Assembly (NCBI GenBank): GCA_964391505.1
Contig: CAYMMG010000005.1
Span: forward strand, 19,676 to 83,675
Reading direction: 5' to 3'
DNA from: an uncultured Burkholderiales bacterium
GTDB lineage: Bacteria > Actinomycetota > Acidimicrobiia > IMCC26256 > JAGPDB01
DNA: 64,000 nucleotides
The position numbers were made by a program, and so were the translations under genes. The number at the start of each line of letters is the position of its first letter. Positions within the stretch are counted from its first letter, which is position 1. Below are positions 21,649 through 48,754 of the stretch, piece by piece. The notes under the pieces were generated by a model. That model saw only the letters and a program-made list of their open reading frames with translations, was not told the DNA's origin and searched no databases.

Positions 21649-21774
21649 TTAGGGTTGTTCCTGGTGCTAGGAGTAGCGACTAAGCAGCAGGTGCGGCCCT
21701 CCTACCTAATTTAGGGTTGTACCTTGGAAACGAGATGATTACGGCGAGGTACAATACAAGGTGCGACCCTCCCC
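21649..21774 (-). repeat. family A intergenic element: two adjacent hairpin-only units in inverted orientation (21649-21702, 21710-21774)
   Basis: TTAGGGTTGTTCCTGG..CAGGTGCGGCCCTCC and TTTAGGGTTGTACCTTGG..CAAGGTGCGACCCTCCCC. These are reverse complements of the GGGAGGGCCGCACC...GGAACGACCCTAAA core seen elsewhere. Confidence 0.85.
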
Positions 21775-21811
21775 AAAGCACGAAAAGATCTAAATAGTAA
21801 AGAGAGATAAG

Positions 21812-22840
21812 ATGGATTCAATTAATTTCCTAGGAATGACGCATTCATTTCCCGAGCAATTTCGAGAAGCCCTAGACAAGGCGCAAAATGTTGACGTTTC
21901 CGCTATAGACGGATCGGTTATCACGAACATCATCGTCTTAGGTATGGGTGGATCTGGTGTTAGTGGCGACATTGTATCGGCGACTTTGAGCCCGACGTGT
22001 TCGATCCCCGTATTCGTGTCCAAGAATTATGAACTCCCTGCTTTTGTCAACGAAGAAACGCTTGTCATTGCAGCAAGTTATTCAGGCACGACAGAAGAAA
22101 CTTTGAGTGCAGTTGCTACTGCTCAAGAAAAGCGAGCGCCCATGATTGCGATATGTTCAGGGGGTACCCTGGCAGAAATCGTAGAAAAATCCTCTTCACC
22201 CTGCGTGCGATACGAAGCTCCTCAGGGCCTGCAACCTCGGGCTACTATGGCGGCACTTATTGCTCCTATTTTTGTTGCACTCGATAAGCTCGGCATTTTT
22301 CCTGAAGGTATTAAGCAGTGCGAATCTGCAATTCGACAAGCAACGAAGCGTCGAGATGAATGTATCGACCCGCAGGGTGATCACATTGCATCAGAACTTG
22401 TTACGCGAATATCGACCACGATTCCTGTTATCTATGGCGGTGGTGCAATAGGTGCTGCTGCTGCTTATCGTTTTAAATGTGATGTAAACGAAAATGCGAA
22501 GTCGCCTGCATACTGGCATGTGTATCCTGAACTGAATCACAACGAGATTGTGGGTTATGGACAGCATGGAGATGTCACTCGGCAATTGTTTACTTTGGTT
22601 GAACTTCGTCACGACTATGAGCACAAGCAGGTTCAGCGTCGCTTTGACATCACGCGCGAACTCATTCGCGAAACGCTTCATGATGTTATTGAAGTGCGAG
22701 CCCAAGGCGACACCGCTCTTGCCCAGTTGTGTGACCTTACTTATATCGGATCACTTGCGAGTGTATATATGGCACTCAATGCTGATGTCGATCCTGGTCC
22801 TGTCGATGTGATTTGGGAACTGAAGAACGCACTTGCTTGA
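21812..22840 (+). CDS. SIS-domain bifunctional phosphoglucose/phosphomannose isomerase
   Basis: 342 aa with a GMGGSG SIS motif and SYSGTTEET motif. It follows manB as in other actinobacteria. Confidence 0.75.
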   Translation: MDSINFLGMTHSFPEQFREALDKAQNVDVSAIDGSVITNIIVLGMGGSGVSGDIVSATLSPTCSIPVFVSKNYELPAFVNEETLVIAASYSGTTEETLSAVATAQEKRAPMIAICSGGTLAEIVEKSSSPCVRYEAPQGLQPRATMAALIAPIFVALDKLGIFPEGIKQCESAIRQATKRRDECIDPQGDHIASELVTRISTTIPVIYGGGAIGAAAAYRFKCDVNENAKSPAYWHVYPELNHNEIVGYGQHGDVTRQLFTLVELRHDYEHKQVQRRFDITRELIRETLHDVIEVRAQGDTALAQLCDLTYIGSLASVYMALNADVDPGPVDVIWELKNALA

Positions 22841-22870
22841 TTTTCCAGAATCATTAAGCGAGGTTTAGTA

Positions 22871-23449
22871 ATGATTGATCAGCCTGATACTCGATATGAC
22901 CCCGTGCTCATGCGCGATGGGGATTCACGTAATGTTGTGGACAAATACAAAACATGGACCGAACAAGCCATAGTTGAGGATTTGGATCGTACCCGCGCAC
23001 CTCTTCATGTGGCCGTAGAGAATTGGGAGAAAGATCTCAATCTTGGAACCATAACGCGAAGCGCAAATGCATTTAACGTTTCAGGGTTTCATATTGTGGG
23101 CGAGAAAAAATGGAACCGTAGGGGTGCAATGGCAACGTATAGGTATGTTCATGTGTACCATCACGAAAGTGTCTCCGAACTTCATGCTTATTGTCAGGTT
23201 CATGACCTCAGTCTTATGGGGATCGATAACTGCGAAACATCTGTACCAATCGAGGGCACTGTTTTTCCTGCAAACACAATGCTGCTGTTTGGAAATGAAG
23301 GAATTGGGCTTACCGCGCAAGCAAAGCAACTTTGTGAAAATATATATGAGATCAGTATGTCAGGTTCGACGCGTTCTCTTAATTCTTCGGTTGCTGCAGG
23401 AATCGCTATGTACCACTGGCAAGCTCACCACGCTGAGATCGATAAATAG
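22871..23449 (+). CDS. TrmH/SpoU family RNA 2'-O-methyltransferase
   Basis: 192 aa with LLFGNEGIGLT and SLNSSVAAGIAMY motifs. Confidence 0.75.
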   Translation: MIDQPDTRYDPVLMRDGDSRNVVDKYKTWTEQAIVEDLDRTRAPLHVAVENWEKDLNLGTITRSANAFNVSGFHIVGEKKWNRRGAMATYRYVHVYHHESVSELHAYCQVHDLSLMGIDNCETSVPIEGTVFPANTMLLFGNEGIGLTAQAKQLCENIYEISMSGSTRSLNSSVAAGIAMYHWQAHHAEIDK

Positions 23450-23461
23450 TTAGGAATTACA

Positions 23462-24907
23462 GTGACATCAGTACTTACTGAAAAAGATTTCAAAGTAGCC
23501 GATCTTTCTCTTGCTGAGTTTGGACGCAAGGAGATCGAGTTAGCTCAAGTCGAGATGCCGGGCCTCATGGCGTTACGCGAAAAATTTCGGGAACAGCAGC
23601 CACTCAAGGGTGCTCGTATTACAGGTTCGCTTCATATGACAATTCAAACTGCTGTGCTCATCGAAACATTAGTTGAACTTGGTGCAAATGTACGGTGGGC
23701 AAGCTGCAATATTTTTTCTACGCAAGATCATGCGGCAGCTGCAATCGCGGTAGGACCTGCTGGTTCTGTCGAGGATCCTCAAGGCGTTCCCATTTTCGCT
23801 TGGAAAGACGAATCTCTTGAAGAATATTGGTGGTGTACACAACAGGCGTTGACGTGGGAAGGCACCGACGGTCCGACCATGATTCTGGACGACGGGGGAG
23901 ATGCCACGCTTCTCGTTCATAAAGGAGCACAAGCAGAAGCTCAAGGTCAGATAGACGAATACGATAATAGTGATCCTGTAGAGATGAAATATATCCTCGC
24001 CACTATTGAAGGTTCGCTATCACTCGATGAATCCTTTTACTCCCGTTGTCTTAAATCGATCGTAGGGGTGAGTGAAGAAACAACTACGGGGGTGCACCGG
24101 CTTTATCGGATGGCTGAAGATGGTATATTGGCATTTCCTGCAATCAATGTGAACGATTCGGTGACTAAATCTAAGTTCGACAATCTCTATGGATGTAGAC
24201 ATTCGTTGGTGGACGGGATCTGTCGTGCAACCGATGTGATGCTTGCAGGTAAAACAGTTGTCGTATGTGGGTATGGTGATGTTGGTAAGGGATGCGCGCA
24301 ATCTCTCCGTGGACAGGGTGCACGCGTACTCATTACAGAAATTGATCCAATCTGCGCACTACAGGCTGCAATGGAAAGCTATGAAGTTGTTCGTCTCGAC
24401 GACGTTGTGCAAAAAGGCGACCTTTTTGTGACGGCGACGGGAAATAAGGACATTATTACTTTTGAGCACATGAAGAAGATGAAAAATAACGCCATTGTGG
24501 GCAATATTGGTCACTTTGATAATGAAATTGATGTGGCAGGTCTTTACTCTGATAAATCAGTTGTTCGAACCAACATCAAACCTCAAGTTGATCAATTTAC
24601 GTTTGCGGATGGCAAAAACATTATTCTGCTTGCCGAAGGTCGACTCTTAAATCTTGGGTGCGCCACGGGGCACCCAAGCTTTGTGATGTCGACAAGCTTC
24701 TCAAACCAAGTTTTAGCCCAAATAGAACTTTTTACTGAGTCGTATGAAATTGGTGTTCATACGCTTTCGAAAAAGTTAGATGAAGACGTCGCTCGTTTGC
24801 ATCTTGAAAAGCTGGGCGTGCACTTGACTGAATTAACAGACGAGCAGTCAAGTTATCTCGGTATTGACGTGGATGGACCCTACAAGCCAGACCACTATCG
24901 TTATTAA
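23462..24907 (+). CDS. ahcY: adenosylhomocysteinase
   Basis: 481 aa with [14 protein letters not shown], the [11 protein letters not shown] site and a C-terminal YRY. Confidence 0.95.
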
Positions 24908-24957
24908 CGGAGGTCTGACCTCCCGGAAGTGTCGTAGGTGGGTTCTATTCTTGAGAT

Positions 24958-25515
24958 GTGACGTGTACGTTATGTGACCCCCTTCGATCGATACAGCAGT
25001 TCCATGTGCGTTCCTTTTCGGATTCTGCGCTCCAGGCACATATATGGATGTACGATTATGAAGATTCACGCGATTTTTTACGCCGTGCGAAATACGGTGG
25101 TGAATCTATCCACTATGCGCATCACAAAGATTTACTGGCTCAAGCAATTTCTGCTTGGTGTGACATTGATTCGACATTTCTTGCGACTTATGTGCCCACG
25201 ATTTCCTCGCATGTTCGTGCACGCGGTCGTGACCATGCCCAAGTTCTCAGCAAACAGGTGGCTCGAATTCTAGGTATTCCACACGAGGGCGCCTTGCTGG
25301 CTACGCACAGTCATGCACAAGCGCGAGCAGGAATACAGCACAGGCGGCGCAATCCTCATTATGTGTGTAGCGGCAGCATGCTTGATAAAACAATAATTTT
25401 GCTGGATGATATTGCCACCACGCGAACGTCACTTACGAATGCTGCACATGCACTCAAAAAGGTTGGCGCACGAAAAATAATCGGTGTTACATATGCTTAT
25501 CGGTATAAAAAATAA
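24958..25515 (+). CDS. comF: ComF family phosphoribosyltransferase-domain protein
   Basis: 185 aa, GTG start, with the IILLDDIATTRTS PRTase motif. It lies in the conserved comF-hpf-secA order. Confidence 0.65.
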   Translation: MTCTLCDPLRSIQQFHVRSFSDSALQAHIWMYDYEDSRDFLRRAKYGGESIHYAHHKDLLAQAISAWCDIDSTFLATYVPTISSHVRARGRDHAQVLSKQVARILGIPHEGALLATHSHAQARAGIQHRRRNPHYVCSGSMLDKTIILLDDIATTRTSLTNAAHALKKVGARKIIGVTYAYRYKK

Positions 25516-25643
25516 AACTTTTTTCTTCCATTTGGCGCACTATCCGCAAAGAAGCCGATGGAGCGCGACTACGAAAAAAAAGAGGTAAAGAGTGAGCTCC
25601 GATGTTCCGTATCTAGAAATGAATCTAACAAAAAGAGCTTGGT

Positions 25644-25871
25644 ATGGAATTCAAAACCTCACATACAGAACAATGTCAGTGGCCTCAGGTCGAGATTGCT
25701 ATGAGCGCTGCTGAGGCTTTTGTCGCGGAGCTCTTCGACCAAGCGGATAACGATGTCATGTATCATCATCCCATCTCCTCTGTTCGTTATGCACTGGCCC
25801 GCGATCACCGTTCGATGTATAAACCAGAGGAAATCGCCGAAAGCATTTTGGCCTGGTCAGGTGCGCTCTAG
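25644..25871 (+). CDS. hypothetical small protein
   Basis: 75-aa ORF and the only candidate in a 400-bp gap. No motif found. Confidence 0.3.
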   Translation: MEFKTSHTEQCQWPQVEIAMSAAEAFVAELFDQADNDVMYHHPISSVRYALARDHRSMYKPEEIAESILAWSGAL

Positions 25872-25912
25872 CGGGACTATGATGGCATCACTATCGAAGT
25901 TAAGGGGGACGA

Positions 25913-26485
25913 GTGGACATCACCGTTCATGAAAAACATACTCACGTACCGCAAAATATTAAAGACCTTGCTGTTGAAAAGTTGGACAAAATTACTCGCT
26001 TTGTTCACGACGCTCATCATGTCGAAGTGGACTTTATTGAACAGGCTTCCAAGAATCCCGAGCAGCGTTTCGTCTGTGAAGTTACGGTGCAGTGTAAGAG
26101 AAACTTTCTCAAAGCTCATGCAGAGGGAGTCGATGCTGCCATTGCTTTAGATGGCGCGATTGACAAAGTGGAGCACCAAGCTCAAAAACTCAAGTCTCGT
26201 CGAGTTTCTCGATTTCATCCCCGCAAGCGCGATTCTCGAACCCATGCAATGATTCCTGATGAAGATTTGGCGGCACTCTTATCGGAACAAGAACCTGATC
26301 AAGAGGCAATGATCGTTCGGGTGAAAGAGCTTGACGTTAAACCCATGGCTGTTGAAGAAGCAGCTCTCCAGATGGATCTACTGGGACATGATTTTTTCGT
26401 TTTTCAGAATGCCGATGATGCTCGATTTTCCGTTATGTATCGACGGAAAGATGGACATCTCGGGATGATTTCGCCTTCATCGTAA
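25913..26485 (+). CDS. hpf: ribosome hibernation promoting factor (long HPF)
   Basis: 190 aa. N-terminal sigma54-modulation/RaiA-like domain plus a C-terminal dimerisation domain (MDLLGHDFFVFQN...YRRKDG). Confidence 0.85.
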   Translation: MDITVHEKHTHVPQNIKDLAVEKLDKITRFVHDAHHVEVDFIEQASKNPEQRFVCEVTVQCKRNFLKAHAEGVDAAIALDGAIDKVEHQAQKLKSRRVSRFHPRKRDSRTHAMIPDEDLAALLSEQEPDQEAMIVRVKELDVKPMAVEEAALQMDLLGHDFFVFQNADDARFSVMYRRKDGHLGMISPSS

Positions 26486-26500
26486 ACTGTTGCTTACGGA

Positions 26501-26578
26501 ACAACTGAATGAACTGCTGTTGGTTGGTTGTTTGGGGAGGGCCGCACCTGCTGCTTCGCACCAGGAACGACCCTAAAT
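26501..26578 (+). repeat. family A intergenic element, full unit
   Basis: ACAACTGAATGAACTGCTG...TTTGGGGAGGGCCGCACCTGCTGCTTCGCACCAGGAACGACCCTAAAT. It starts 15 nt after the hpf stop. Confidence 0.9.
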
Positions 26579-26598
26579 ATCTAGTAACGTTATAGGCC

Positions 26599-29301: not shown

Positions 29302-29343
29302 GTTCATGGGCGTGTTTTCTCACGCGCGCAAAGGATAGTTATC

Positions 29344-30480: not shown

Positions 30481-30521
30481 TAAGTGCGAGGTCCGTCCTC
30501 ACTAAGTGCGAGGTCCGTCCT
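30481..30521 (+). repeat. 22-bp tandem repeat x2 (TAAGTGCGAGGTCCGTCCT)
   Basis: Exact 19-nt copies lie at 30481-30499 and 30503-30521. The core GAGGTCCGTCCT(C) is complementary to the core of the downstream 58-bp repeats. Confidence 0.9.
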
Positions 30522-30547
30522 TAAAAAATGCGATCGTCTAGTTGAAC

Positions 30548-30720
30548 ACTATTTTCAAGAGGACGGACCTCATCGCCAATGCATCGAGACCGCGGCGTAG
30601 CGATCACTACTTTCAAGAGGACGGACCTCATCGCCAAAGCATCGAGACCGCGGGAAAGCGCTCTCTTAGTTCAAAAGGACGTGTCTCACCCTTCTCAGGG
30701 CGGAATCCTAAAGAAACTAG
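30548..30720 (+). repeat. ~58-bp tandem repeat x3 (third copy degenerate)
   Basis: ACTAYTTTCAAGAGGACGGACCTCATCGCCAAWGCATCGAGACCGCGG occurs at 30548 and 30606. A degenerate TTCAAAAGGACGTGTCTCACCC lies at about 30670. Confidence 0.85.
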
Positions 30721-30728
30721 GTGTGAGT

Positions 30729-30820
30729 CAACTGAACGAACTGCTGCTACTTCGTTGTTTTGGGGGAGGGTCGCACCTGCGCTTAGTCGCTACGCTCCTG
30801 GCGCAGGAACAACCCTAAAT
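30729..30820 (+). repeat. family A intergenic element, full unit
   Basis: CAACTGAACGAACTGCTGCTACTTCGTTGTTTTGGGGGAGGGTCGCACCTG...CAGGAACAACCCTAAAT. Confidence 0.9.
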
Positions 30821-30868
30821 GCGAAGAAATCTCTTCTCACCCTCGCACTTTGGTAACCTGTTATTTCC

Positions 30869-32463: not shown

Positions 32464-32488
32464 TAAGGCCTGACCTTATTTCTCATAT

Positions 32489-32551
32489 GTCATCGCGAGA
32501 GAGCCGACCGAAGGGAGTCCTGAGCTTGCGAAGGATCTCGAGGGATCTCCG
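32489..32551 (+). repeat. family B intergenic element (long form)
   Basis: GTCATCGCGAGAGAGCCGACCGAAGGGAGTCCTGAGCTTGCGAAGGATCTCGAGGGATCTCCG. It is the near-exact reverse complement of 42848-42918. Confidence 0.8.
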
Positions 32552-32585: not shown

Positions 32586-32750
32586 ACAACTGAGCGGACT
32601 GCTGCAACTACTTTTCTTTTTGGGGGAGGGTCCGACCTGTTCGCTGTAGATCCCGATACAACTGTACGAACTGCTGCGGATTCGTTGGTCTTGGGGGAGG
32701 GCCGCACCTTGTAAAACCGCTTTGCGGTTGTCCAAGGAACGACCCTAAAT
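32586..32750 (+). repeat. family A intergenic element, dimer (truncated unit 32586-32657 + full unit 32658-32750)
   Basis: Both units carry ACAACTG.ACG.ACTGCTGC and TTGGGGGAGGG. The second ends GGCCGCACCTTGTAAAACCGCTTTGCGGTTGTCCAAGGAACGACCCTAAAT. Confidence 0.9.
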
Positions 32751-32824
32751 TGAGATGGTTTTTCGCATTGTGCGCCTGTGTGCGTAATAGTCCTTTCTTC
32801 CGGCTCTTTACTTTTCGTCGTTTC

Positions 32825-35279: not shown

Positions 35280-35292
35280 AGCAAACTCCGTA

Positions 35293-35393
35293 ACAACTGA
35301 ACGAACTTCTGTTACTGCGTTATCTTTGGGGGAGGGCCGCACCTTGGGCTACACGCCGCGAAGGTAGCTCCGTTCCCAAGGAACGACCCTAAA
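35293..35393 (+). repeat. family A intergenic element, full unit
   Basis: ACAACTGAACGAACTTCTG...TTTGGGGGAGGGCCGCACCTTGGG...CCCAAGGAACGACCCTAAA. Its end overlaps the TetR stop codon. Confidence 0.9.
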
Positions 35394-36000
35394 GTTCTAC
35401 TGCCATTGCTTCTTTCAGTACAGCAATGACGTGCTCACGTCGGGTCTCCAAAGCTTCCTTACTTAAAGGGTCGCCGTCGATCACGGCGCTTACTAATGAT
35501 GCATCTGACAAATACGAAAGTGATGCTCCATATCCCGTGATGAGAAGCTGACGTGGTTCATAATATTTGAGGCGACCAAGATCCATTTCGGATTGCAAGT
35601 ATTGTGCGCCTTGATCAACAAGTGGTTTCAGGGCTGTTCCGAGTTCGGTAGAAAAAAGCGATTCCGGGTCGAGCGCTTCTCGTCGAGCAATACGAACAAA
35701 GTACGGATGTTTTTCAAAAAAAGTAAATGCTGCACGTAAAAGTTTTTCAACTTGATCCCAGCCGGTGAGATTATTTCCGATTGCATCGGTCATGAGAAAA
35801 ACCCAGTCAGAAAATTCGTCGAGAATAACTGCTCGATACAGAGCTTCCTTGGACGAAAAGTGATGCAAGATTGAAGGTTTTTTTATTCCTACTTCTTCAG
35901 CAATGTCGTTAAGGCTCACCGCTGCGTATCCGTGATCTGCAAAATGTTTGAGTGCGGCACGAAGAATGAGTGCCTTGGTATCCGAAACCGTTGTTGTCAC
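35389..36000 (-). CDS. TetR family transcriptional regulator
   Basis: 203 aa with the N-terminal HTH ILRAALKHFADHGYAAVSLNDIAEEVGIKKPSILHHF. Confidence 0.8.
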   Translation of the reverse strand: MTTTVSDTKALILRAALKHFADHGYAAVSLNDIAEEVGIKKPSILHHFSSKEALYRAVILDEFSDWVFLMTDAIGNNLTGWDQVEKLLRAAFTFFEKHPYFVRIARREALDPESLFSTELGTALKPLVDQGAQYLQSEMDLGRLKYYEPRQLLITGYGASLSYLSDASLVSAVIDGDPLSKEALETRREHVIAVLKEAMAVEL

Positions 36001-36066
36001 GAACCCATTGTATTGCAGATACAGAGTAGTCTGTCATTATCAACTGTCATTCTGAGTTTTTACTTA

Positions 36067-36103
36067 GTCATTCCGAGTGAAACGAGGAATCTCCGCGAAG
36101 CGG
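36067..36103 (+). repeat. family B intergenic element (short form lacking the central ~40 nt)
   Basis: GTCATTCCGAGTGAAACGAGGAATCTCCGCGAAGCGG shares both ends with the long form. A further GTCATTCTGAG fragment lies at 36046-36056. Confidence 0.65.
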
Positions 36104-36125
36104 ATTGATTAGAAGGAGATAGCAT

Positions 36126-36795: not shown

Positions 36796-36957
36796 ACAAG
36801 TGAACGGACTGCTGCAACTTCGCTGTTTCTGGGGAGGGCCGCAAGCTGCAAGGCTGCAGATCCCGATACAACTGAACGACTTGCTGCAGATTCGTTTATC
36901 TGGGGGAGGGCCGCACCTTGTATAACCGCTTTGCGGTTGTCCAAGGAACAACCCTAG
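36796..36957 (+). repeat. family A intergenic element, dimer (truncated unit 36796-36867 + full unit 36868-36957)
   Basis: It has the same dimer architecture as 32586-32750. The right-hand 56 nt differ at only 2 positions by eye. Confidence 0.9.
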
Positions 36958-37052
36958 TCTTGTCACCGCTTTTGTGAATTATTTTTTTAAGCGCTAAAAT
37001 TCACGGGCTGTATTCGTAAGTTTAAGAAATCGTATTCCAAGGATGTGAAGCG

Positions 37053-38267
37053 TTGTCAAGGAACGGAAAAGTTAGCGATAGAGACGTCGCTGAAGAAATA
37101 CTGAGACGCCAAGCCTTAGGCCATAATGCAAGAGATATCGTTCGCGATACTGCACAACTTGCCAGACGTACACTTGCACAAATCGAAGTCAGCAAGGCAA
37201 CCCAGCCGCTATTGGAATTCTGGTTACGCAATACGCCGTGGATCGATGTTTCGGGTCGTTGGGATTTACAGTTTGTCGATGGCAAACTTCCTAAAGGTCA
37301 AGTCCTGGATTTGGGGGCCGGTACTACTTTCATGACGCATCTTTATGCAGCAACAAATCCGCGTGCAGTAATAACTGCTTGCGATTCGGATAGAAGAAAT
37401 GGAGGTAAGGAACGTGTCGAGCTTTTTCAAAAAGATCCTGAGCTTCGTGAACGAATGGTCTCTGAAGCTCAGAGGCGTATTTGTGCCATAGACATTGCCT
37501 TCGATATTGGAACCAAAGTATCTGGCGGGAAAAGATCTCCCAATGTCTCAGCGAATTTTGTTCGACCAGCTCGTCCCTTAGAAAACTATCTCGATGCGCA
37601 ATGTCCTAATATTCCCGTTCTCGATGCTTCCTTTGAGGGTTTAATAGCTATGAGAGTATTTGACTATCTCGATGACCCAATCGGTTTCTTCCAAGAAGCC
37701 CAAAGAATTTTGGATACTCGTCGGGGAAAGATTCTCATGAATGTATATAACCCTTTTAACTTGGGCCCATGGGGGATGATGACGGCAATGATGTCATCAT
37801 CTATGAAGTCAATGGAAGTAGGTGCGGCAACTTTACAATCGGGAAAAGTACAAAAAAATCTTTTTGCCGAATGTCTCCAGAGATTCCTTGTTATAGCTGC
37901 TTCTCACGGATTTGAAATGACCAGATTGGCACATGACGGCTATGCCCCTTCTGAGTTCGATGTACATAGCGAGCCTTCAAAAATGCGAGCTTGGGAAAAG
38001 TGTGAAGCACTATTTCCTGGACGGATCAATGAGGGCGGAATCAAACAACAGCTTCCCGAAATAGCTCCAGAGACACTTTATTTTGAATTCACACGTAAGG
38101 AACCAGATAAAATTTTTGTTCCCACTCCCGAAGCTTGGCAACCTTTCGTCGATGGAACGAATGCCCCAGAGCGGATTGTGCAACGGGGGCTTGGCGACGC
38201 GCTCCGTATCCAATATTTACCTTCGCTTTCACGTAAACCTATTGCTCTAGATGGGGCAATGCGGTAG
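37053..38267 (+). CDS. class I SAM-dependent methyltransferase-fold protein with unknown N- and C-terminal extensions (paralog A)
   Basis: 404 aa. A TTG start is forced by the stop at 37047-37049. Motif I is VLDLGAGTT. The post-motif region FDYLDDPIGFFQEAQRILDTRRGKILMNVYNP is typical of small-molecule/RNA methyltransferases. Confidence 0.6.
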   Translation: MSRNGKVSDRDVAEEILRRQALGHNARDIVRDTAQLARRTLAQIEVSKATQPLLEFWLRNTPWIDVSGRWDLQFVDGKLPKGQVLDLGAGTTFMTHLYAATNPRAVITACDSDRRNGGKERVELFQKDPELRERMVSEAQRRICAIDIAFDIGTKVSGGKRSPNVSANFVRPARPLENYLDAQCPNIPVLDASFEGLIAMRVFDYLDDPIGFFQEAQRILDTRRGKILMNVYNPFNLGPWGMMTAMMSSSMKSMEVGAATLQSGKVQKNLFAECLQRFLVIAASHGFEMTRLAHDGYAPSEFDVHSEPSKMRAWEKCEALFPGRINEGGIKQQLPEIAPETLYFEFTRKEPDKIFVPTPEAWQPFVDGTNAPERIVQRGLGDALRIQYLPSLSRKPIALDGAMR

Positions 38268-39388
38268 TGGCTCAAAACGGTCGACTCGACTCCATTTTTC
38301 ATTCGGGTGATGAAAACTTCATTAATGAAGTAACTGATGGACTCGCTGAAATAATTGAAAGAGAACGATTCGTCAAGCAGTGGCTAGAAACAGGTGCTTG
38401 GGTGGAAGTCACGTCACCATTGAACTTACTTTTTACCAGGGGACGCATTCCTTCGGGTCGCATTCTCGATGTGGGAGCAGGAACGGGCATGATGACACAC
38501 ATTTTGGCCGATGCTAATCCGCGATCGGTTTTTTATGGGTGCGATAAGAGCGCTATCAGTAATGCCATCGAAGAAATGTTTAGAAAGTATCCAGAATGCT
38601 TGACGCGCATTATGTCTACTGTCCGACATCAAATCGGCACTATTCATGAACTGAATGTTCCTGTAAATGGAACATCCTCTCGCACGGCGACGCAGAAGCC
38701 TTATCAGATCTCTTCTCGGCTACTCGGTGGATGGATCGATGCATATTCTCCCAACATTCCTTCTGAGAATGGTTTTTTTCGTGCAGTCACATCTTTTCAG
38801 GCATTCCACGACATGGACGCGCCGGATGCATTCTTCTCAGAGGTGAGTCGACTTACAACACCAAACGGAATGCTCTTCATGAGTATTATGAATCCTTATG
38901 CAACAGAAATGTTGGATTCGCTTTCACATCTTTTAGGGCATGCATTTCAACCGGACGATATTGGTGTATCAACATTGGATTCGCAGCGGTGTCAGGACGA
39001 TATCCTTGCTCAATACCTTCAAAGGATTCTTGTTCTCGCAGCAGTAAATGGCTTTGAAGTAAAGCGTATTGCACGGTTTCCCTTTGGTAGACAGACCTTT
39101 CCTTTTACGCCAGAAGAAAATGCTTCTTCCCGAAATAAATTTAATGAGCGTTTTGCTGATCGTCTTGGTCAGAATGGATATCAACATCCAGATATTGATG
39201 AATGTCCACTGGCGTTCTTTTTGGAATTTAAGAAAAAAGACCCATCAAAAATATTTGTTCCCGAAATTGATACATGGATTGGTTACATGGATGCATCTGT
39301 TCCTGAACGACCAGTGGAAAAAGGTCAAAGCCGAATTCGCATTGAAGTTCTTCCCCAGCCGTCACGGAGCGCAGGGCGATCGAGATAA
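38267..39388 (+). CDS. class I SAM-dependent methyltransferase-fold protein (paralog B of the preceding gene)
   Basis: 373 aa. The GTG start overlaps the upstream TAG by 1 nt (TAGTG). Motif I is ILDVGAGTG. It is collinear with paralog A at roughly 30% identity by eye and shares the C-terminal KIFVP...W...D...PER motif. Confidence 0.6.
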   Translation: MAQNGRLDSIFHSGDENFINEVTDGLAEIIERERFVKQWLETGAWVEVTSPLNLLFTRGRIPSGRILDVGAGTGMMTHILADANPRSVFYGCDKSAISNAIEEMFRKYPECLTRIMSTVRHQIGTIHELNVPVNGTSSRTATQKPYQISSRLLGGWIDAYSPNIPSENGFFRAVTSFQAFHDMDAPDAFFSEVSRLTTPNGMLFMSIMNPYATEMLDSLSHLLGHAFQPDDIGVSTLDSQRCQDDILAQYLQRILVLAAVNGFEVKRIARFPFGRQTFPFTPEENASSRNKFNERFADRLGQNGYQHPDIDECPLAFFLEFKKKDPSKIFVPEIDTWIGYMDASVPERPVEKGQSRIRIEVLPQPSRSAGRSR

Positions 39389-39969: not shown

Positions 39970-39985
39970 CGAATCAATCAACACT

Positions 39986-40347
39986 TGGAGGTGGGGGGTT
40001 TCGAAACCCCCGTCCTTTAGACCCATTCGTAGGCCTTCTCCGAGCGCAGTTACCGGTAAGGTTTCGAAACATTTGCCGCCAGTAACTCTGACAAAGTTTC
40101 TAGTCAACTAAATATGTCCTCGTAAGTAGCTAACGCCTTACGGAGCAAGTACCGTGATTGAACCTGATGCGGCGACGGTACCTACCGCTTCAGGCACTAC
40201 TTAAAATTAATTAAGCAGCTAGTGCGTAGACTGAGCTTTCGCTCTCATCGTTTGCATTTATTGTTTTGCACAGACTCTTTAACGACAGTCTGCAACGTCG
40301 GCTCGCTTCTCCTACGGCCAAGTACAAAGTCGAAACCATGCACCCCC
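39986..40347 (-). ncRNA. ssrA: transfer-messenger RNA (tmRNA)
   Basis: The 5' end is GGGGGUGCAUGGUUUCGAC. The 3' end is GGACGGGGGUUUCGAAACCCCCCACCUCC-A. A 7-bp acceptor stem carries G3:U (Ala identity). An internal tag ORF is present. CCA is not encoded. A TACAAT -10-like box lies at 40357-40362 (minus strand). Confidence 0.9.
40210..40254 (-). other. tmRNA tag-peptide reading frame ANDESESSVYALAA + TAA
   Basis: Resume codon GCA at 40254-40252. 14 codons end in the canonical ALAA, followed by UAA. Confidence 0.8.
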
Positions 40348-40423
40348 GAGACTTATATTGTACAACGGCCGTCAAGGGGTTTTCATCCCTAATCTGACAT
40401 AAAGCAATAGCTACTATTGATTC

Positions 40424-41188: not shown

Positions 41189-41348
41189 TGGCAGGGCGGG
41201 TCGCTGTAAAGACTTTGCAGCGTAAGATCTCGTTCACGAAAAATGAGGTTAACTGCGCAATACTGTAGAATCTTCTAAAATCGACATTAGTGTTGCATGG
41301 GCGAAAGGTGCCAGGTCGCGGTGTCAATGGCAAGACGAGGATGATGAG

Positions 41349-42365: not shown

Positions 42366-42399
42366 AGTTTCAAGAGTTTATCGTTTGCAGGGTGGTGTA

Positions 42400-42843: not shown

Positions 42844-42847
42844 TTTT

Positions 42848-42918
42848 CCGCTGCGCGGAGATTCCTCGCAATCCTTCGCAGGCTCAGGACTCCCTACGGT
42901 CGGCTCTCTCGGAATGAC
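42848..42918 (-). repeat. family B intergenic element (long form, inverted)
   Basis: The reverse complement reads GTCATTCCGAGAGAGCCGACCGTAGGGAGTCCTGAGCCTGCGAAGGATTGCGAGGAATCTCCGCGCAGCGG. Confidence 0.8.
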
Positions 42919-42950
42919 AATGGGTAGAATTCTCGAAACGACTGAACTGA

Positions 42951-43673: not shown

Positions 43674-43788
43674 TAGAGATATTTTCGACCTATCTGTCCT
43701 AAAACTAAAGATGTATTTCGCGAATTTTACGAATAAGGCTTCTCTGTGCGGAGCGAAAATGCCGAACTATCTGATCTAAGCTGGGATT

Positions 43789-44070
43789 ATGTCTATTGAA
43801 GTTCGAATTCCTTCTGTTATGCGATCCAATACCGCTGGTCAGGCGACTGCTCAATGCGCAGGTGATACCGTAGGAACAGTGTTGGAAGACCTTATTGCTC
43901 AGTTTCCTGGGATTGGAGACGTGCTTTTTGGGGATACGAAAACTCTTCATAAATATGTCAATATCTACTTAGATGCTGATGATATTCGTTATGTTGGCGG
44001 ACTTGACGCAAAAATCGGTGAAGCAAAAGAGCTGACAATTCTCCCCGCAGTTGCTGGTGGCTCCGCGTAA
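43789..44070 (+). CDS. cysO: ThiS/MoaD-family sulfur carrier protein CysO (with 2-residue extension after Gly-Gly)
   Basis: 93 aa ending ILPAVAGGSA. It is collinear with the mycobacterial CysO sequence pattern (VNIY..D.D.R...GL......D..TILPAVAGG). Confidence 0.8.
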   Translation: MSIEVRIPSVMRSNTAGQATAQCAGDTVGTVLEDLIAQFPGIGDVLFGDTKTLHKYVNIYLDADDIRYVGGLDAKIGEAKELTILPAVAGGSA

Positions 44071-45005
44071 TGCGCGTTGAATCTGTTCTTGATCTCATTG
44101 GATCAACTCCCATGGTGGGAATCCATGAACTGAGCCCTAACCCGAATGTAAAAATTTATCTCAAACTTGAAGGACAAAACCCTGCGGGTTCGATGAAGGA
44201 TCGAATTGCGCTCGCATTAATTGTCGATGCAGAGAAGCGCGGTGTTCTCAAACCGGGCGGCACGGTTCTTGAATCCTCGAGCGGAAACACTGGAATCGGT
44301 TTGGCAATGGTATGTCGGTTGCGCGGATACCGTTTAGTTGTGGTTGTTGCGGATAACGTAACGAAAGAACGCATTGATTTGTTGAAATCATTTGGAGCGG
44401 AAATCATTTTTTCACCCGGCACACTGGGGAGCAACGGAGCAATAGTTCGCGCAAAAGAATTAAGCGCAAACAATCCCGATTGGGTATTGCTCTATCAATA
44501 TGGAAATGAAGCAAATTCACTCGCACATGAAGAAACAACGGGTCCGGAAATATTAGAGGATTGCCCGGAGATTGATTTTTTCGTTGCGGGTCTTGGAACA
44601 TCGGGGACGCTTATGGGTGTGTCTCGCTATTTTCGTAAAGCAAAGCCTGACGTAAAAATTATTGCAGTCGAACCTCCAACAGGAGAATCTGTGACGGGGT
44701 TGCGTTCGCTCGAAGACGGATTTATTCCAGAAATATTTGACGCAGATTTGATTGATCGCAAAATCATGATTCGCTCACAAGAATCTCTTGAAATGACCCG
44801 AGAGCTTTTAAATACGTGCGGGATCTTTGTCGGCGTGTCAACAGGAGCTGTTGTCGCAGGTGCGGTCAAACAAGCCCAGCAAATTGAATCGGGAACGATT
44901 GTTGTTGTTTCACCTGATTCGGGATGGAAGTATTTATCTGCGGGTGTGTGGACCGATAACCTCGATGATGTAGTAAGCACATCCGAAACTATTAACTTTT
45001 GGTAA
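44070..45005 (+). CDS. cysM: PLP-dependent cysteine synthase (CysM-type, CysO-thiocarboxylate dependent)
   Basis: 311 aa with NPAGSMKDR (PLP Lys) and SSGNTGIGLA motifs. Its start overlaps the cysO stop. Confidence 0.85.
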   Translation: MRVESVLDLIGSTPMVGIHELSPNPNVKIYLKLEGQNPAGSMKDRIALALIVDAEKRGVLKPGGTVLESSSGNTGIGLAMVCRLRGYRLVVVVADNVTKERIDLLKSFGAEIIFSPGTLGSNGAIVRAKELSANNPDWVLLYQYGNEANSLAHEETTGPEILEDCPEIDFFVAGLGTSGTLMGVSRYFRKAKPDVKIIAVEPPTGESVTGLRSLEDGFIPEIFDADLIDRKIMIRSQESLEMTRELLNTCGIFVGVSTGAVVAGAVKQAQQIESGTIVVVSPDSGWKYLSAGVWTDNLDDVVSTSETINFW

Positions 45006-45008
45006 AGC

Positions 45009-45986
45009 ATGATTACTCAAGATATCCAACTCTGCGTTGATGCGTTAACCCGTGGAGAAGTTGTCGCGTTTCCTACGGAAACCGTGTTCGGCTTGGGAGC
45101 ACGTTCGGATTCACCTGAAGCAATACGAAAGATATATGACATCAAAGGTCGCCCCGCTGACCATCCGCTTATCGCTCATTGTTCGGATGTCGATGTGGCT
45201 CTAGCTCTTTCTCCTGATGTTCCGGATTATGCACGTGCTCTCGCAGCAGAATTTTGGCCAGGACCGATGACGTTAATTTTTCGTCGTGCAGGGAGTGACG
45301 CAATCTGCGATGAAGCGGTAGGAGGACATGATACCGTCGCTATTCGTGTCCCTTCTCATGAAATTGCACGTGAGCTGCTGGCCCCTTGTGGTTTCTTTGT
45401 GTCTGCGCCTTCCGCAAATAAATTCGGTCGCGTATCTCCTACGACAACAGAGCACGTGCGATCTGAATTTGGAGATGACATTCTTATTCTCGATGGCGAG
45501 CCCTCACAATGCGGTGTCGAATCGACGATCATCTCGTGTACTGGTTCACACCCACACGTTATCCGCGCTGGTGCAATCACTACACAAGACATATTACGTG
45601 TAACAGGCCACGACGTCTCATCTGATCTAGCTAACTCAAGCGATGACAATGTAGCTGCACCCGGGACATTAGAAAACCATTATGCTCCTCGCATTCCTGT
45701 TTACGTTGTAGCTGACGAGCAAGCGATTGAGTTCACGGAAGGACTGAGCCCAGAAAATTCTGCATTTTTGTCTTTTGGTCAGCCCTCTCAAACTTTCTTG
45801 TTGTCCTTGGTTGTGCATTCCTACGATGATTATGCTCGCCAGCTCTACGACTTCTTTCGTCAAGCTGAAGTGAATGGGTGCGAAGCTATTTTCGCTGTGG
45901 CCCCTGAGAACGAAGGAATCGGTGTGGCGATCAATGATCGCTTAAGCAAAGCGTCGCATTCTTTAACGGAATCAAGCAATGGCTGA
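45009..45986 (+). CDS. tsaC: L-threonylcarbamoyladenylate synthase (YrdC + Sua5 domains)
   Basis: 325 aa with VVAFPTETVFGLG, KGRPADHPL and SAPSANKFGRVSPT motifs plus a C-terminal Sua5 domain. Confidence 0.85.
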   Translation: MITQDIQLCVDALTRGEVVAFPTETVFGLGARSDSPEAIRKIYDIKGRPADHPLIAHCSDVDVALALSPDVPDYARALAAEFWPGPMTLIFRRAGSDAICDEAVGGHDTVAIRVPSHEIARELLAPCGFFVSAPSANKFGRVSPTTTEHVRSEFGDDILILDGEPSQCGVESTIISCTGSHPHVIRAGAITTQDILRVTGHDVSSDLANSSDDNVAAPGTLENHYAPRIPVYVVADEQAIEFTEGLSPENSAFLSFGQPSQTFLLSLVVHSYDDYARQLYDFFRQAEVNGCEAIFAVAPENEGIGVAINDRLSKASHSLTESSNG

Positions 45987-48669
45987 TGCATCGCAGCGCG
46001 AAGGAATCTTCGTTATCCATCAGCCGACATATGAAAAAAATGAACATTCGCTCACGCTGACGTGTACCTATGAATCCCAACAAACTGACGGCGACACGCA
46101 TGTCTTTACCGAAACATTTAAGTTCACATTTCCTGAGTCAATTCACTTAGATGAGATAGATTCAGATCAAATCAACGCCACCGCGCGTCATGTTGCTATA
46201 GCTGCAGCGCCGAGTTATTACAAAGCGACTGTTTTACCAGTAGTTGCCCTTGATTTTCCTATGAGCACAGAAACAAAAGAGTGGTTGCGAGCGCTTTTCG
46301 ATCAAGGCTTACGCGAATTCTGGTTCCGTAATGGATTTGATCTCACAAAGGAAATTGACTTTTCTGCTCCAAGTATTAATGACACAAGTGGAAAGAAGCC
46401 GAAATCATCGAGGAATGCGAAAGACAAAATAAAGTATCTGGTTCCTATTGGTGGAGGAAAAGATTCTGCAACGACTTTGCACATCTTGTCTCGCAGTGGT
46501 GCGGATGTTGTTGGGTTTTCGATTGGCGATTTTAATTCAATTAATGAAACTGCACGTGTGGCTGGTATTGAGGTGGTCCGTGTTGCTCGAATAATTGACC
46601 CGTTACTTTTTGATCTCAATGCGCAAGGTGCCCCCAACGGCCATGTACCTGTGACGGCGATAACGTCAACCCTTGCGTGTATTGCAGCTCTTGGAATTGG
46701 TGCCGACGCAGTTGTGATGAGCAACGAGCGTTCCGCTGATGAACCGACGCGTGTTGTGGGGGATATTGAAGTCAATCATCAGTGGTCAAAGTCTTGTGAA
46801 GCAGAAAACCTTCTTCGTTTGGCCTTGGATAGTTCAGGTTGCGATATTGAATATTTTTCTTTGTTGCGTTCATCATCTGAATATGAAATTTTCTCAATTT
46901 TTTCTCAGTGCGATGAATTCCATACAGTGTTCACGAGCTGCAATCGTACGTTTCGCATTGATGAGGCCCAGCGCGCATCGACATGGTGTGCCGATTGCGA
47001 TAAGTGTCGTTTCGTGTTCCTCGGTTTGAGTGCATTCCGAGGCGCTCTTTACGCATCCCAAATCTTTAGCGTGAATATGTTTGATGATGAATCCCAAAAA
47101 CAAGGCTTTCTTGATCTCCTCGGTATTGGTGATAACAAACCGTTCGAGTGCGTCGGTACTGTTCGAGAGTCACGAATGCTGGCACGCAACGCATTGAAGT
47201 GGGACGCGGCTGCAGGTTCGATTGTAGGCAAGACGCTTGCAGAGGCGTTGGGTGGCATGAATGTTCTAGATGAAAAAACTCCAGTTTCTTCTCATGAAGA
47301 TTTCATTCCAGAAGATCTGCGAAAAAATATCGAATCAATTCAAGTGGAGCAGTATAAGAAGCATTTGAAAGGTCATCTATCCGGTCAGAAAATTGGTGTA
47401 ATGGGACTCGGTCGTGATACTTCCGCCATCATTCGATTTCTTGACTCTTGTGGTTGCACTCAACCGATTCAGGTATTTCAACCTTCGAGCGAAGGATTAA
47501 CAGAAGAGGATTTTCGAGCGCAACGAGAAAAAGTGGGACTTGAAAATATTTCGATCGAGCTGATCCTAACTCGCGACATTGCAAACCTGAATGCAGATAT
47601 CGTTTTCGTGAGTCCGGGAATCTCTCGATATTCTTCGGAAGTACAGACATTAGGAGGGCGAGCAACGACTCCGCTTGCATGGTGGCTCTCGTATAACAAA
47701 GAGCATTTTCCTTCCAAGTGTTATATCGGAGTGACGGGAACCAAGGGCAAGAGTACAACTGCATCAATGTTGGGTCACGTGCTCGATCGCTCTGTTGTCG
47801 CGGGCAATCTTGGTCACGCCGTCGGAGAGGTCCGCGTTGAAGAATTATTAACAGCCGATTACATCGTGCTCGAAGTGTCAAGTTATCAAGCAAGCTATGT
47901 TACGACTTCACCGGATGTAGTTGCCGTTACATCTTTGTTTGACTGTCATATCGATTGGCATCGCACTCCAGAAAATTACCGTAAAGATAAGTTGAATCTT
48001 GCGCTGCAAGGACCTAACGAAATTGTTGTATCAGACACTATTGACGATTTTGCCCCCATGCTGATCGATATAAGAAAAGAACAAGCGCTTGTTGATCACG
48101 TCGATGTCATTACTTTTATTCCGAGTAGTGAAAGGTCTCTACTCGAACGTAACCATGATATGGTTCGCGCTATTGCTGAACTTGTTGCACCGCATATGTC
48201 CGAGTGGGAAATCACTGAGAAACTGGCAACATTTGCACCCCTGAAGCATCGACAAGAAGTTATCGCAACCAAGAATGGTGTGGTTTATATTTCTGATGTT
48301 CTCAGTACTGCTCCCTTAGCGGTGTTGATGGCAGTTGATGATTTTTCTCTGCGCTATCCCAATGCCACGGTCTATCTTTTGTGCGGGGGAGCAGATCGTG
48401 ATGTGCATCTGGATCCACTCATTGAAGGGTTAAATGTACGAAAAGATCGAGTCGTAACGATAACGCTTCCTGAAACGGGACACATGATGGAAGGCAAAAT
48501 TGAGAATGCCCACCACTGTGATGAACTGAGCAATGCTGTTCCCTATGTAGCCAGCGTGGCTAAGCCTGGCGATGTTGTCCTTCTCGCTCCTGGAGCACCG
48601 AGTTTCCATCGCTACGAGAATTACGCCAAACTCGCAGAGCACTTTGAACAGCTTGTTGGTGATCTCTAG
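45979..48669 (+). CDS. two-domain fusion: N-terminal PP-loop-like ATP-utilising domain (MurL-type epimerase candidate) + C-terminal MurD-family ligase
   Basis: 896 aa. The N-terminal half carries LVPIGGGKDSATT (SGGKDS-like PP-loop) and a CADCDKC Cys cluster. The C-terminal half has the MurD Rossmann KIGVMGLGRDTS, the GVTGTKGKSTTASM P-loop, and the remaining Mur-ligase middle and C-terminal domain pattern. Confidence 0.7.
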   Translation: MADASQREGIFVIHQPTYEKNEHSLTLTCTYESQQTDGDTHVFTETFKFTFPESIHLDEIDSDQINATARHVAIAAAPSYYKATVLPVVALDFPMSTETKEWLRALFDQGLREFWFRNGFDLTKEIDFSAPSINDTSGKKPKSSRNAKDKIKYLVPIGGGKDSATTLHILSRSGADVVGFSIGDFNSINETARVAGIEVVRVARIIDPLLFDLNAQGAPNGHVPVTAITSTLACIAALGIGADAVVMSNERSADEPTRVVGDIEVNHQWSKSCEAENLLRLALDSSGCDIEYFSLLRSSSEYEIFSIFSQCDEFHTVFTSCNRTFRIDEAQRASTWCADCDKCRFVFLGLSAFRGALYASQIFSVNMFDDESQKQGFLDLLGIGDNKPFECVGTVRESRMLARNALKWDAAAGSIVGKTLAEALGGMNVLDEKTPVSSHEDFIPEDLRKNIESIQVEQYKKHLKGHLSGQKIGVMGLGRDTSAIIRFLDSCGCTQPIQVFQPSSEGLTEEDFRAQREKVGLENISIELILTRDIANLNADIVFVSPGISRYSSEVQTLGGRATTPLAWWLSYNKEHFPSKCYIGVTGTKGKSTTASMLGHVLDRSVVAGNLGHAVGEVRVEELLTADYIVLEVSSYQASYVTTSPDVVAVTSLFDCHIDWHRTPENYRKDKLNLALQGPNEIVVSDTIDDFAPMLIDIRKEQALVDHVDVITFIPSSERSLLERNHDMVRAIAELVAPHMSEWEITEKLATFAPLKHRQEVIATKNGVVYISDVLSTAPLAVLMAVDDFSLRYPNATVYLLCGGADRDVHLDPLIEGLNVRKDRVVTITLPETGHMMEGKIENAHHCDELSNAVPYVASVAKPGDVVLLAPGAPSFHRYENYAKLAEHFEQLVGDL

Positions 48670-48675
48670 CTTCGA

Positions 48676-48754
48676 TACAACTGAACGAACTGTTGTAGTT
48701 TGGTTTGGTATGGGGAGGGCCGCACCTGCTGCTTCGCACCAGGAACAACCCTAA
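48676..48754 (+). repeat. family A intergenic element, full unit
   Basis: ACAACTGAACGAACTGTTG...TATGGGGAGGGCCGCACCTGCTGCTTCGCACCAGGAACAACCCTAA. It starts 6 nt after the stop of the PP-loop::MurD gene. Confidence 0.9.

Follow-up and report, generated by a model that had tools for sequence, protein, structure and literature searches.

A 64,000-nt stretch of DNA deposited as an uncultured Burkholderiales bacterium (GTDB lineage Bacteria; Actinomycetota; Acidimicrobiia; IMCC26256; JAGPDB01) carries a structured intergenic repeat, here called family A, with ten units at seven loci. The stretch, hereafter the window, covers positions 19,676 to 83,675 of the forward strand of contig CAYMMG010000005.1 (NCBI GenBank assembly GCA_964391505.1). 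Comparison with related genomes showed that the units are insertions, present or absent between genomes about 90% identical and located in spacers in either orientation. Our tentative reading, held with slightly less than even confidence, is that family A represents a young, lineage-restricted, non-autonomous mobile hairpin repeat resembling the repetitive extragenic palindromic (REP) sequences and the IS200-IS605 insertion sequences, and not a regulatory RNA of the host. It is a previously undescribed family of a broadly familiar kind, that of REP-like mobile hairpin repeats.

The F strand of a unit reads ACAACTGAACGAACTGCTG...GGGGAGGGYCGCACC-(apex)-GGAACRACCCTAA. The R strand, which is the structured one, is the reverse complement, TTAGGGTYGTWCC-(apex)-GGTGCGRCCCTCCCC, and also reads TAGGGTYGTWCC...GGTGCGRCCCTCCCC. 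On the R strand the minimal unit is [TTAG]^GGTYGTWCC-(variable apex)-GGTGCGRCCCU-CCCC, the caret marking the junction, and longer units further comprise a spacer rich in A and C, the conserved motif GCAGCAGTTCGTTCAGTTGT(ATCG) and an end resembling YTAR. The apex measures 3-50 nt and the unit 33-80 nt. The original prediction, made from the letters of the window, had described ten units of a single structured family whose outer stem is kept around a variable apex, and this description stands: its coordinates at all seven loci, its apex classes and the distances of 7-19 nt from upstream stop codons proved correct on re-inspection, and a repeat finder recovered the same eight + strand units and two inverted ones. 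The count and positions also hold, with the qualification that the units at 32586-32652 and 36796-36862 are truncated, retaining module 1 and the core's 5' half without a closing arm, so that the window contains eight complete hairpins. A covariance model built from 25 complete-hairpin units found exactly these eight (21644, 21706, 26526, 30755, 32686, 35321, 36895 and 48704), scoring 52-72 bits on the R strand and at most 23 bits on the other strand. As predicted, no copy occurs near the window ends, the model being without a match in 1-21 kb and 49-64 kb. The motifs GGGGAGGGYCGCA, ACAACTGAACGAACTGCTG and GGAACRACCCTAA occur 11, 8 and 11 times in the window, against 1.3, 0.01 and 1.7 expected from shuffles. 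The units are as follows, with the strand on which R lies; module 1 denotes the first part of a full unit.

21649..21706, R strand = +, unit 1: TTAG, hairpin (stem A21651...T21700), long GCUAGGAGUAGCGACUAAGC-type apex, degenerate CCTACC tail; model match 21644-21704, 52.1 bits.
21710..21777, R strand = +, unit 2: TTTAG, hairpin (stem A21713...T21770), CCCCAAA tail; model match 21706-21782, 67 bits.
26501..26577, strand -, complete unit: module 1 at 26501-26519, G-run and core at 26534-26548, short-apex hairpin at 26538-26574; model match 26526-26581, 64.1 bits.
30728..30819, strand -, complete unit in the prfB-ftsE spacer: module 1 at 30728-30746, core at 30763-30777, closing arm at 30806-30818; model match 30755-30823, 66.3 bits.
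32586..32652, strand -, truncated unit: module 1 at 32586-32604, subfamily-b core half (GGGGAGGGTCCGACC) at 32623-32637, linker ...GTAGATCCCGAT; not detected by the covariance model.
32658..32749, strand -, complete unit in the ftsX-M23 spacer: apex with an AACCGC-TTT-GCGGTT hairpin; model match 32686-32753, 65.9 bits.
35281..35393, strand -, complete unit: module 1 at 35293-35311, hairpin at 35333-35390; model match 35321-35397, 71.6 bits.
36796..36862, strand -, truncated unit: module 1 and core half GGGGAGGGCCGCAAG, then linker ...GCAGATCCCGAT; no closing arm.
36868..36957, strand -, complete unit: apex class as in 32658, end CCCTAG; model match 36895-36962, 62.1 bits.
48677..48755, strand -, complete unit: short apex identical to that of 26501; model match 48704-48759, 64.7 bits.

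When one genome from each of 185,579 species was scanned with a gapped pattern, only 11 loci of Acidimicrobiia bacterium AMR_MDS_0228 (DAOLGI01) and one contig of CAZFAO01 matched. Family A was found only in the genome of the window and in DAOLGI01, the sister metagenome-assembled genome (MAG), which is about 90% identical, plus one unit in a third MAG, CAZFAO01. Loci outside the window bear L numbers (L003, L010, L006 and L015 from the sister MAG; L008, L019 and L024 from CAZFAO01; L018 from a Logan contig; L028 from a near-identical assembly). Viral contigs, plasmids and phages gave no family-A match, and two metagenome matches of a scan anchored on module 1 were rejected as chance matches without a hairpin. 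The expectation that no Rfam family covers the repeat was borne out: Rfam 15 at the gathering threshold yielded only the tmRNA and tRNA-Leu genes in the window, and a scan of 21.5-37.1 kb at E<=5 gave no match on any unit. The literature on Acidimicrobiia repeats and on DUF222/REP13E12 held nothing relevant to family A.

Contig 7 of DAOLGI01 is syntenic with 22.3-38.8 kb of the window at 88-92% DNA identity. The whole unit at 35293 and the whole array 36796-36957 are missing from the sister MAG; conversely, a unit in its TetR-F420 spacer (L010:5540) is missing from the window. Where the window has one unit in the prfB-ftsE spacer, the MAG has two, whose apex differs and is short, and its ftsX-M23 spacer has a single subfamily-b unit. 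The unit at 26501, in the HPF-SecA spacer, is shared with the sister MAG (L003) and missing from the orthologous spacers of relatives. Four relatives with 82-86% SecA identity keep the gene order and have no family-A hairpin at the syntenic loci; their Trm112-PGI spacer measures 12-20 nt versus 175 nt in the window, and their HPF-SecA spacer 53-78 nt versus 113 nt. Most of the additional spacer length in this otherwise tightly packed, syntenic region is due to the ten units. Given the absence from relatives and the polymorphism between close genomes, the units reflect recent, ongoing insertion and turnover and not conserved regulatory sites. A near-identical assembly exists (ENA ERZ27258527 k141_1071916), and all units of L028, the near-identical second assembly, are identical to those of the window, without strain-level polymorphism.

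On the R strand the junction always reads TAG^GGT; the T, A and G are invariant in 25 units, the AG lies within the stem, and the base before TAG is T in most units, C in two, G in one and A in one. Three sites could be compared in both states:

Locus 35293: empty in the MAG, ACATTTAG^GCC (...ATTTAG^GCC; site GGCCTAAATGTCC); filled in the window, GAACTTTAG^GGTCG...TTTGCTTTAA^GCC.
MAG-only unit L010:5540: empty in the window, GATTAG^AAGGAG; filled in the MAG, TGTTAG^GGTTG...CCCTCCCTG^AAG.
Locus 36796: empty in the MAG, GACTAC^TTCAC; filled in the window, GACTAG^GGTTG...CTCTA^TTCAAC.

Because TTAG already stands at the junction in two of the three empty sites, the alignment suggests that it is the target and not part of the element, insertion probably occurring on its 3' side. 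The opposite, R-3' ends of long units are YTAR-like (TTTAA, GCTAG, GATTAG, CTCTA) and resemble this target, and the junctions consequently look like short duplications. The units abut stops because TAG and TAA are stop codons. The unit at 35293 sits between two converging genes, DUF3052 (+) and TetR (-), and contributes to the stops of both: TetR terminates at the TAG of the R-strand TAGGGT (35389-35391, - strand), and the TAA that ends DUF3052 comes from the TTTAA end. In the MAG both genes overlap in CTAA. The element TAG also serves as a gene stop at L004:1412-1414. At 26501 the CTAA at 26573-26576 is TTAG on the R strand, and the unit at 48677 starts 7 nt past the TAG stop of a Mur-ligase-type gene, upstream of RNase PH.

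Flanks of this sort might also be expected from a miniature inverted-repeat transposable element (MITE) of a DDE transposase of the IS5 or IS630 type, inserting at YTAR/TA with target duplication, the strand asymmetry being inherited by chance from a master copy. TA(A/G) motifs do occur on both sides (TAAAG/TAAAG, TAAAC/TAAAT, TAGCT/TAACT, TAGAG/TAGTC), but the left-hand TAR motifs are mostly just the stop codon of the neighbour, and the hairpin-only unit L010:5540 shows no duplication. Moreover, terminal inverted repeats are missing, the ends ACAACTG.../...GACCC not being complementary; the F-5' end varies or is truncated, in contrast to the fixed opposite end; and three diverged subfamilies all keep R-strand pairing. 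We regard such an origin as improbable.

The F-5' side is variably shortened among units, and module 1 is absent from 21649, 21711, L012 and units of L005 and L006, with the hairpin end fixed. Unit 2 retains only a TTCGTGCTTT remnant of the F-5' part. The weak hairpin originally assigned to module 1 was not upheld: it folds at -2 to -11 kcal/mol with no consistent strand preference, the 5' half being conserved and the 3' half variable and T/G-rich, and we treat the module as a linear sequence motif. All multi-unit loci are arranged head-to-tail (21649/21711, 32586/32658, 36796/36868, L002, L004, L007, L010) with an array period of 70-72 nt. The dimers 32586-32749 and 36796-36957 have the same 72-nt period and are 96% identical (repeat-finder family D4). 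As each truncated unit lies 72 nt ahead of a complete one (32658 being 72 nt downstream of 32586), the two dimers are copies of one composite.

Structural conservation is confined to the R strand. We aligned the stems of 25 complete hairpins from the window, DAOLGI01 and one contig of CAZFAO01, comprising 16 stem pairs. On the R strand 91.7% of stem cells pair, compared with 81.2 ± 1.0 in shuffles and 40-55% when the partners are slid, and the same stem read on the F strand pairs in 77.1% of cells. This difference is due entirely to five stem positions, at which 58 cells are G:U on R and C:A on F, with zero cells reversed. Double changes affect seven of the stem pairs (G:C to U:G, U:G to G:C, and U.U to A:U or C:G); unit 2 (21710) has A:U at stem position 9 and U:A at position 5. 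RNAalifold gives a consensus of -20.0 kcal/mol with an uninterrupted 8-pair base on the R strand, versus -9.4 kcal/mol with a 4-pair base and a 5x5 internal loop on the F strand. Diverged subfamilies carry wobbles at other positions, still on R (AGGGTCTGAYC/GGTCGGACCCT, AGGGTTGGACC/GGTCCGGCCCT, AGGGTTGTCCC/GGGGCGACCCT), and at least nine stem haplotypes in three subfamilies are all R-consistent. The R-strand CCCUCCCC tail is conserved too, with three to four invariant C residues after the stem. Thus, the claim that pairing is kept on one strand only, with genuine compensatory changes, is confirmed. As for the selection invoked to explain it, on an RNA or single-stranded DNA hairpin of one strand, the strand-specific structure is supported and a cis-acting RNA or anti-Shine-Dalgarno function is not; single-stranded DNA fits better. 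Because the copies are recent, polymorphic insertions, recent common descent accounts for much of their 'preservation', and selection most plausibly operates on the propagation of the element.

An asymmetry made up solely of G:U pairs is a classic signature of RNA, and the units might instead be host-selected on the R strand as a hairpin with a single-stranded CCCUCCCC tail, which would act as a 3' stabiliser or, by mimicking the 16S 3' end and its anti-Shine-Dalgarno (anti-SD) sequence, would sequester SD sequences or ribosome-biogenesis factors. The invariant C residues agree with this, as do several units directly after a stop in R-sense (TetR, L002, L004, L011). We consider it unlikely all the same. 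No promoter belonging to a unit was found in a promoter scan, and the copies are young and polymorphic, which leaves conservation in place doubtful. Orientation also speaks against it. At six of the seven window loci the F strand is co-directional with the + strand genes, and R is antisense to both neighbouring genes. In the sister MAG, R is sense to the upstream gene at about eight loci and antisense at about nine. The upstream gene runs in the same sense as R at L002, L004 (two loci), L005, L006:7468, L011 and window 21649, and in the same sense as F at L001, L008 and window loci; other units lie between convergent genes (window 35293, L007) or between divergent ones (L005:3798, L010:5570, L012), divergent promoter regions included. 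Relative to the local GC skew, about 13 loci point one way and 8-9 the other, without clear bias. The idea of a consistent orientation in the original prediction thus fails in the sister MAG, where the copies show the random orientation that this prediction had named as counting against it, and the + strand bias of the window is local. Since orientation is mixed with respect to both genes and GC skew, no RNA acting in cis can account for the asymmetry of every copy; and since the structural asymmetry is unaffected by this mixture, its cause must be independent of host transcription.

The resemblance to 16S rRNA, which also speaks for the RNA reading, deserves separate mention. The basal stem (UAG-GG-YCGUWCC / GGUGCGRCC-CU) matches helix 45 (UAG-CCGUACC / GGUGCGGCU), U:G wobble included, and a CCUCC-containing tail follows. 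Both AAGGTGCGGC and CCTCC, present in the R-strand 3' arm and tail, recur in the helix 45 3' strand and anti-SD of Gram-positive-type 16S rRNA; shuffle tests on the independent half gave a nominal p of 4e-4 to 4e-3. The likeness was noted at window 21651-21700 and on the R strand of the other units, but subfamily b does not share the match. One short-apex variant matches ACCGG(A)AGGTGCG. The resemblance is post hoc, the comparison having been chosen once the data had been seen, and that the R-strand unit might be a dispersed mimic of the 16S 3' end strikes us as very improbable. If it were, transcribed copies would compete for SD sequences or for factors of helix 45 and the anti-SD (KsgA/RsmA, Era, RbfA), and the mobile repeat would double as a modulator of translation or ribosome assembly.

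Strong hairpins (-28 to -37 kcal/mol) right after stops also recall a factor-independent terminator or mRNA 3'-end protector, exapted and spread by recombination and not by transposition, and relatives do have small unrelated hairpins in the same spacers. However, no U-tract follows the stem (CCCCAAA on R, AAAT on F), and a terminator scan called no unit. Units also lie in divergent promoter spacers, within an open reading frame (ORF), and within apparent operons (HPF-SecA, ftsE-ftsX-M23) whose spacers are tight in relatives. Such a role is accordingly quite unlikely. Protein coding was rejected as well: four window units are open (CAA CTG AAC GAA CTG ... CCC TAA), but over 22 units the phase varies and in-frame stops occur.

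Returning to a mobile hairpin, the asymmetric ends, the hairpin end fixed at a tetranucleotide, the pairing on one strand, the orientation blind to transcription and the bursts together point to single-stranded DNA mobility of the HUH/Y1 type, from which a putative model can be drawn. On one strand a TTAG-like tetranucleotide, in many cases coinciding with a TAG or TAA stop codon, would serve as the target, and the element would insert on its 3' side. The R-strand hairpin of the element, in which G:T wobbles are tolerated, would be recognised by a strand-specific enzyme acting on single-stranded DNA, a candidate being an HUH/Y1 transposase of the IS200/IS605 type or a REP-associated tyrosine transposase (RAYT). 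Propagation would then be limited to copies paired on the R strand. Since the element's own end mimics the target, head-to-tail arrays could arise, and effects on host transcripts, through a 3' hairpin or the SD-like GGGGGAGGG run, would be a by-product.

Several observations weigh against this model. Pfam matches of all larger ORFs in the window include no transposase, whether Y1/HUH, RAYT or other, and tblastn with IS608, IS200 and RAYT queries revealed none of the HUH class in 339 kb of related loci, a weak test that covers only a small fraction of the genomes. Instead of GTAG the head is TTAG, with AG inside the stem; the arrays are direct and not the inverted doublets typical of REP doublets (REPINs) and bacterial interspersed mosaic elements (BIMEs); and a second, right-end hairpin is not supported, given the folding energies of module 1. 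At the junctions, the third empty site is CTAC and not CTAG, and the breakpoints are ambiguous by one to a few nucleotides, so that a 3-5 bp TA(A/G) duplication is also compatible (TAAAG/TAAAG, TAG/TAG). Finally, only about five independent wobble-generating changes can be counted, all favouring R (nominal p ~0.03).

A different partner would be a selfish gene of the DUF222-HNH (REP13E12) type, whose nuclease might mobilise the hairpins or home beside them. The MAG has at least three copies of an element of about 1.37 kb encoding a DUF222+HNH protein, of the REP13E12 type of M. tuberculosis, whose start resembles a strong promoter (TTGACT-18-TATTAT) and whose ends are highly conserved. L006 (GTTAAAAAC) and L009 (ATTA(G)CCC) may have duplications at their flanks. 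With that on the Logan contig, the copies are:

L006:6063-7445, strand -, DUF222-HNH element.
L009:343-1683, strand -, DUF222-HNH element.
L015:10001-11266, strand +, DUF222-HNH element.
L018:111-1433, strand +, DUF222-HNH element.

At L006 and L015 of the MAG and at L018 on the Logan contig, a subfamily-b hairpin lies in gene orientation about 33 nt upstream of the element start, in two independent arrangements (L006/L018 and L015). Furthermore, L006, L009 and L018 carry an in-frame family-A hairpin in the 3' end of the gene (...FAETISELGLFLVRSSRCGPPQIDNDLKQEKPPPL...), with R as the mRNA sense, and the last ~130 nt including this hairpin are nearly identical between paralogs about 84% identical elsewhere. 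Yet the internal hairpin is a secondary replacement, since twenty-odd homologs (P0004-P0026) end ...FAEKHSAKLRPKPPPLKTG without it. The idea that the hairpin is an ancestral end of the element was likewise dismissed: most homologs have none, and where present it stands in place of ~20 nt at the 3' end of the coding sequence. No hairpin lies near the ortholog in CAZFAO01, and the window holds ten units and no HNH gene in 64 kb. Co-location may simply reflect 'repeat nests' shared with a second repeat family, GTCATYCNGAG, whose members precede the upstream subfamily-b hairpins. We regard the HNH gene as a doubtful partner, with a low probability.

REP-type small hairpin repeats are well studied in Proteobacteria and, to our knowledge, hardly described in Actinomycetota; our literature search found no description of them in uncultured marine Acidimicrobiia. 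Family A shares with the REP/REPIN-RAYT systems short imperfect palindromes scattered in intergenic spacers, often right after stops; an orientation given by a conserved head that lies 5' on the hairpin strand and ends in TAG; compensatory changes that keep the stem paired (91.7% of cells and seven pairs in family A); and lineage-specific, mosaic clusters with other repeats. REPs are oriented by a 5' GT(A/G)G head ahead of the palindrome, e.g. GTAGGGTGGG..., and some begin GTAGGGT... (PMC2817692). The family-A head is instead TTAG and partly in the stem; the stem is longer, with its 3-50 nt variable apex, and the unit (33-80 nt) exceeds typical REPs. Its arrays are direct with a 70-72 nt period, unlike the inverted doublets or alternating BIME arrangements of REPs, and it has an extra conserved linear module, an actinobacterial host and no RAYT found. 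With IS200/IS605 ends and palindrome-associated transposable elements, family A has in common a strand-specific subterminal hairpin, asymmetric ends without inverted repeats, an element end that resembles the target and apparent insertion 3' of a specific tetranucleotide. However, its target abuts the hairpin, in contrast to the ~19 nt separation in IS200/IS605; a second-end hairpin is not supported, no TnpA/TnpB lies nearby, and the mechanism is the putative one outlined above.

Other families are more distant. Pneumococcal BOX, the enterobacterial repetitive intergenic consensus (ERIC/IRU) and the Correia/NEMIS elements are likewise modular, structured intergenic repeats of variable module number, co-transcribed with their neighbours, but their sequences are unrelated and they are not known to show a wobble pattern confined to one strand; Correia and ERIC elements also have inverted-repeat termini or a TA duplication. 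The mycobacterial interspersed repetitive units (MIRUs) are actinobacterial, tandem units of 50-100 nt in operon spacers next to stops; they carry small ORFs, in phase with the neighbouring genes, that overlap the stop and start codons of these, whereas family A has no conserved frame and is defined by its hairpin. The in-frame hairpin in the 3' end of the DUF222-HNH gene (L006, L009, L018) resembles the Rickettsia palindromic elements, but one gene lineage is affected and the large majority of copies are intergenic. Integron attC sites were rejected: the neighbours are housekeeping genes in conserved synteny, and no R''/R' core-site consensus (RYYYAAC...GTTRRRY) is visible.

The window itself is part of a bacterial chromosome, with 46% GC and a GC skew that stays positive along its whole length. 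The housekeeping genes it carries encode PGM, PGI, S-adenosylhomocysteine (SAH) hydrolase, HPF, SecA, RF2, FtsE/X, an M23 peptidase, peroxiredoxin, TetR and RNase PH, besides tRNA-Leu and, at 39985-40347(-) beside smpB, the tmRNA gene (129 bits, tag ANDESESSVYALAA). The region from TetR/F420 to smpB differs in content among relatives; in the window it holds methyltransferase genes (37053-39388), a variable island by the repeat-rich stretch. The GTCATYCNGAG family (GTCATYCNGAG...GRATCTC(CGCGAAGCGGA)) is often tandem or nested and adjoins family-A units and HNH elements. Its copies are:

885-908(-), 32488-32551(+), 36046-36104(+) and 42847-42919(-) in the window; also L006, L009, L010 and L015.

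Two of these copies, 32488-32551 and 42856-42919, are 89% complementary over 64 nt. The prfB-ftsE spacer also houses a third repeat set (30482-30659). Two direct copies of AAGTGCGAGGTCCGTCCT (about 30482-30522) stand ahead of a 58-nt tandem duplication (30544-30659), the units of which are 90% identical and include the complementary AGGACGGACCTC. The set is missing from the sister MAG, and in L018 the HNH gene has a similar GTGCGAGGACCGTCC on its 3' side. Hairpins of the form AGGGT...ACCCT that do not belong to family A follow stops in relatives (L003:2585-2630, L024:13875-13964, L010:350-375). Examples are a CAGGGTCCAACC-CTGTTGCAA-GGTTGGACCCTG hairpin that follows the SAH hydrolase gene of the MAG and a 90-nt perfect hairpin (CAGGGTCCGACCCTGCAAAAAT...) in CAZFAO01. 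These point to a broader superfamily in the clade, with hairpins of the form GGGTC(S)(R)ACCC. The sole structural difference between the window and the 99.7-100% identical assembly lies after the SAH hydrolase gene, where the 20-nt hairpin spacer (window 24907-24927) is replaced in L028 (8263-8329) by an unrelated 66-nt sequence with GTCCTTATGTTT twice. Elsewhere, a near-perfect 31-nt inverted repeat at 5787-5896 (97% complementary, 48 nt apart; CGCTAGTTGCAGGGCCCGGCCTTGCAAACAA) lies between a convergent epimerase (+) and F420 ligase (-) and overlaps both gene ends, and a 45-nt direct repeat at 12914-13029 (76% identical, 71 nt apart) spans the stop of a thioredoxin-like ORF (12539-12985). The assembly GCA_964516875.1, to which CAZFAO01 belongs, is titled 'uncultured Burkholderiales bacterium'; yet its contigs (L008, L019, L024) show synteny to the Acidimicrobiia window in their gene order and have 86% SecA identity and ~47% GC, and the taxonomic label, or the binning of those contigs, looks wrong.

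In summary, family A records a very recent burst in an otherwise tightly packed, syntenic region. Current concepts would remain unchanged unless the link to 16S mimicry or to the HNH gene proves real. In practical terms, the family breaks assemblies of these MAGs and offers a strain-level marker, and the covariance model could help to find the cognate enzyme. Insertion at TAG or TAA preserves the stops of both convergent genes, and the conservation of the stem on one strand, independent of the direction of transcription, points to a single-strand intermediate.

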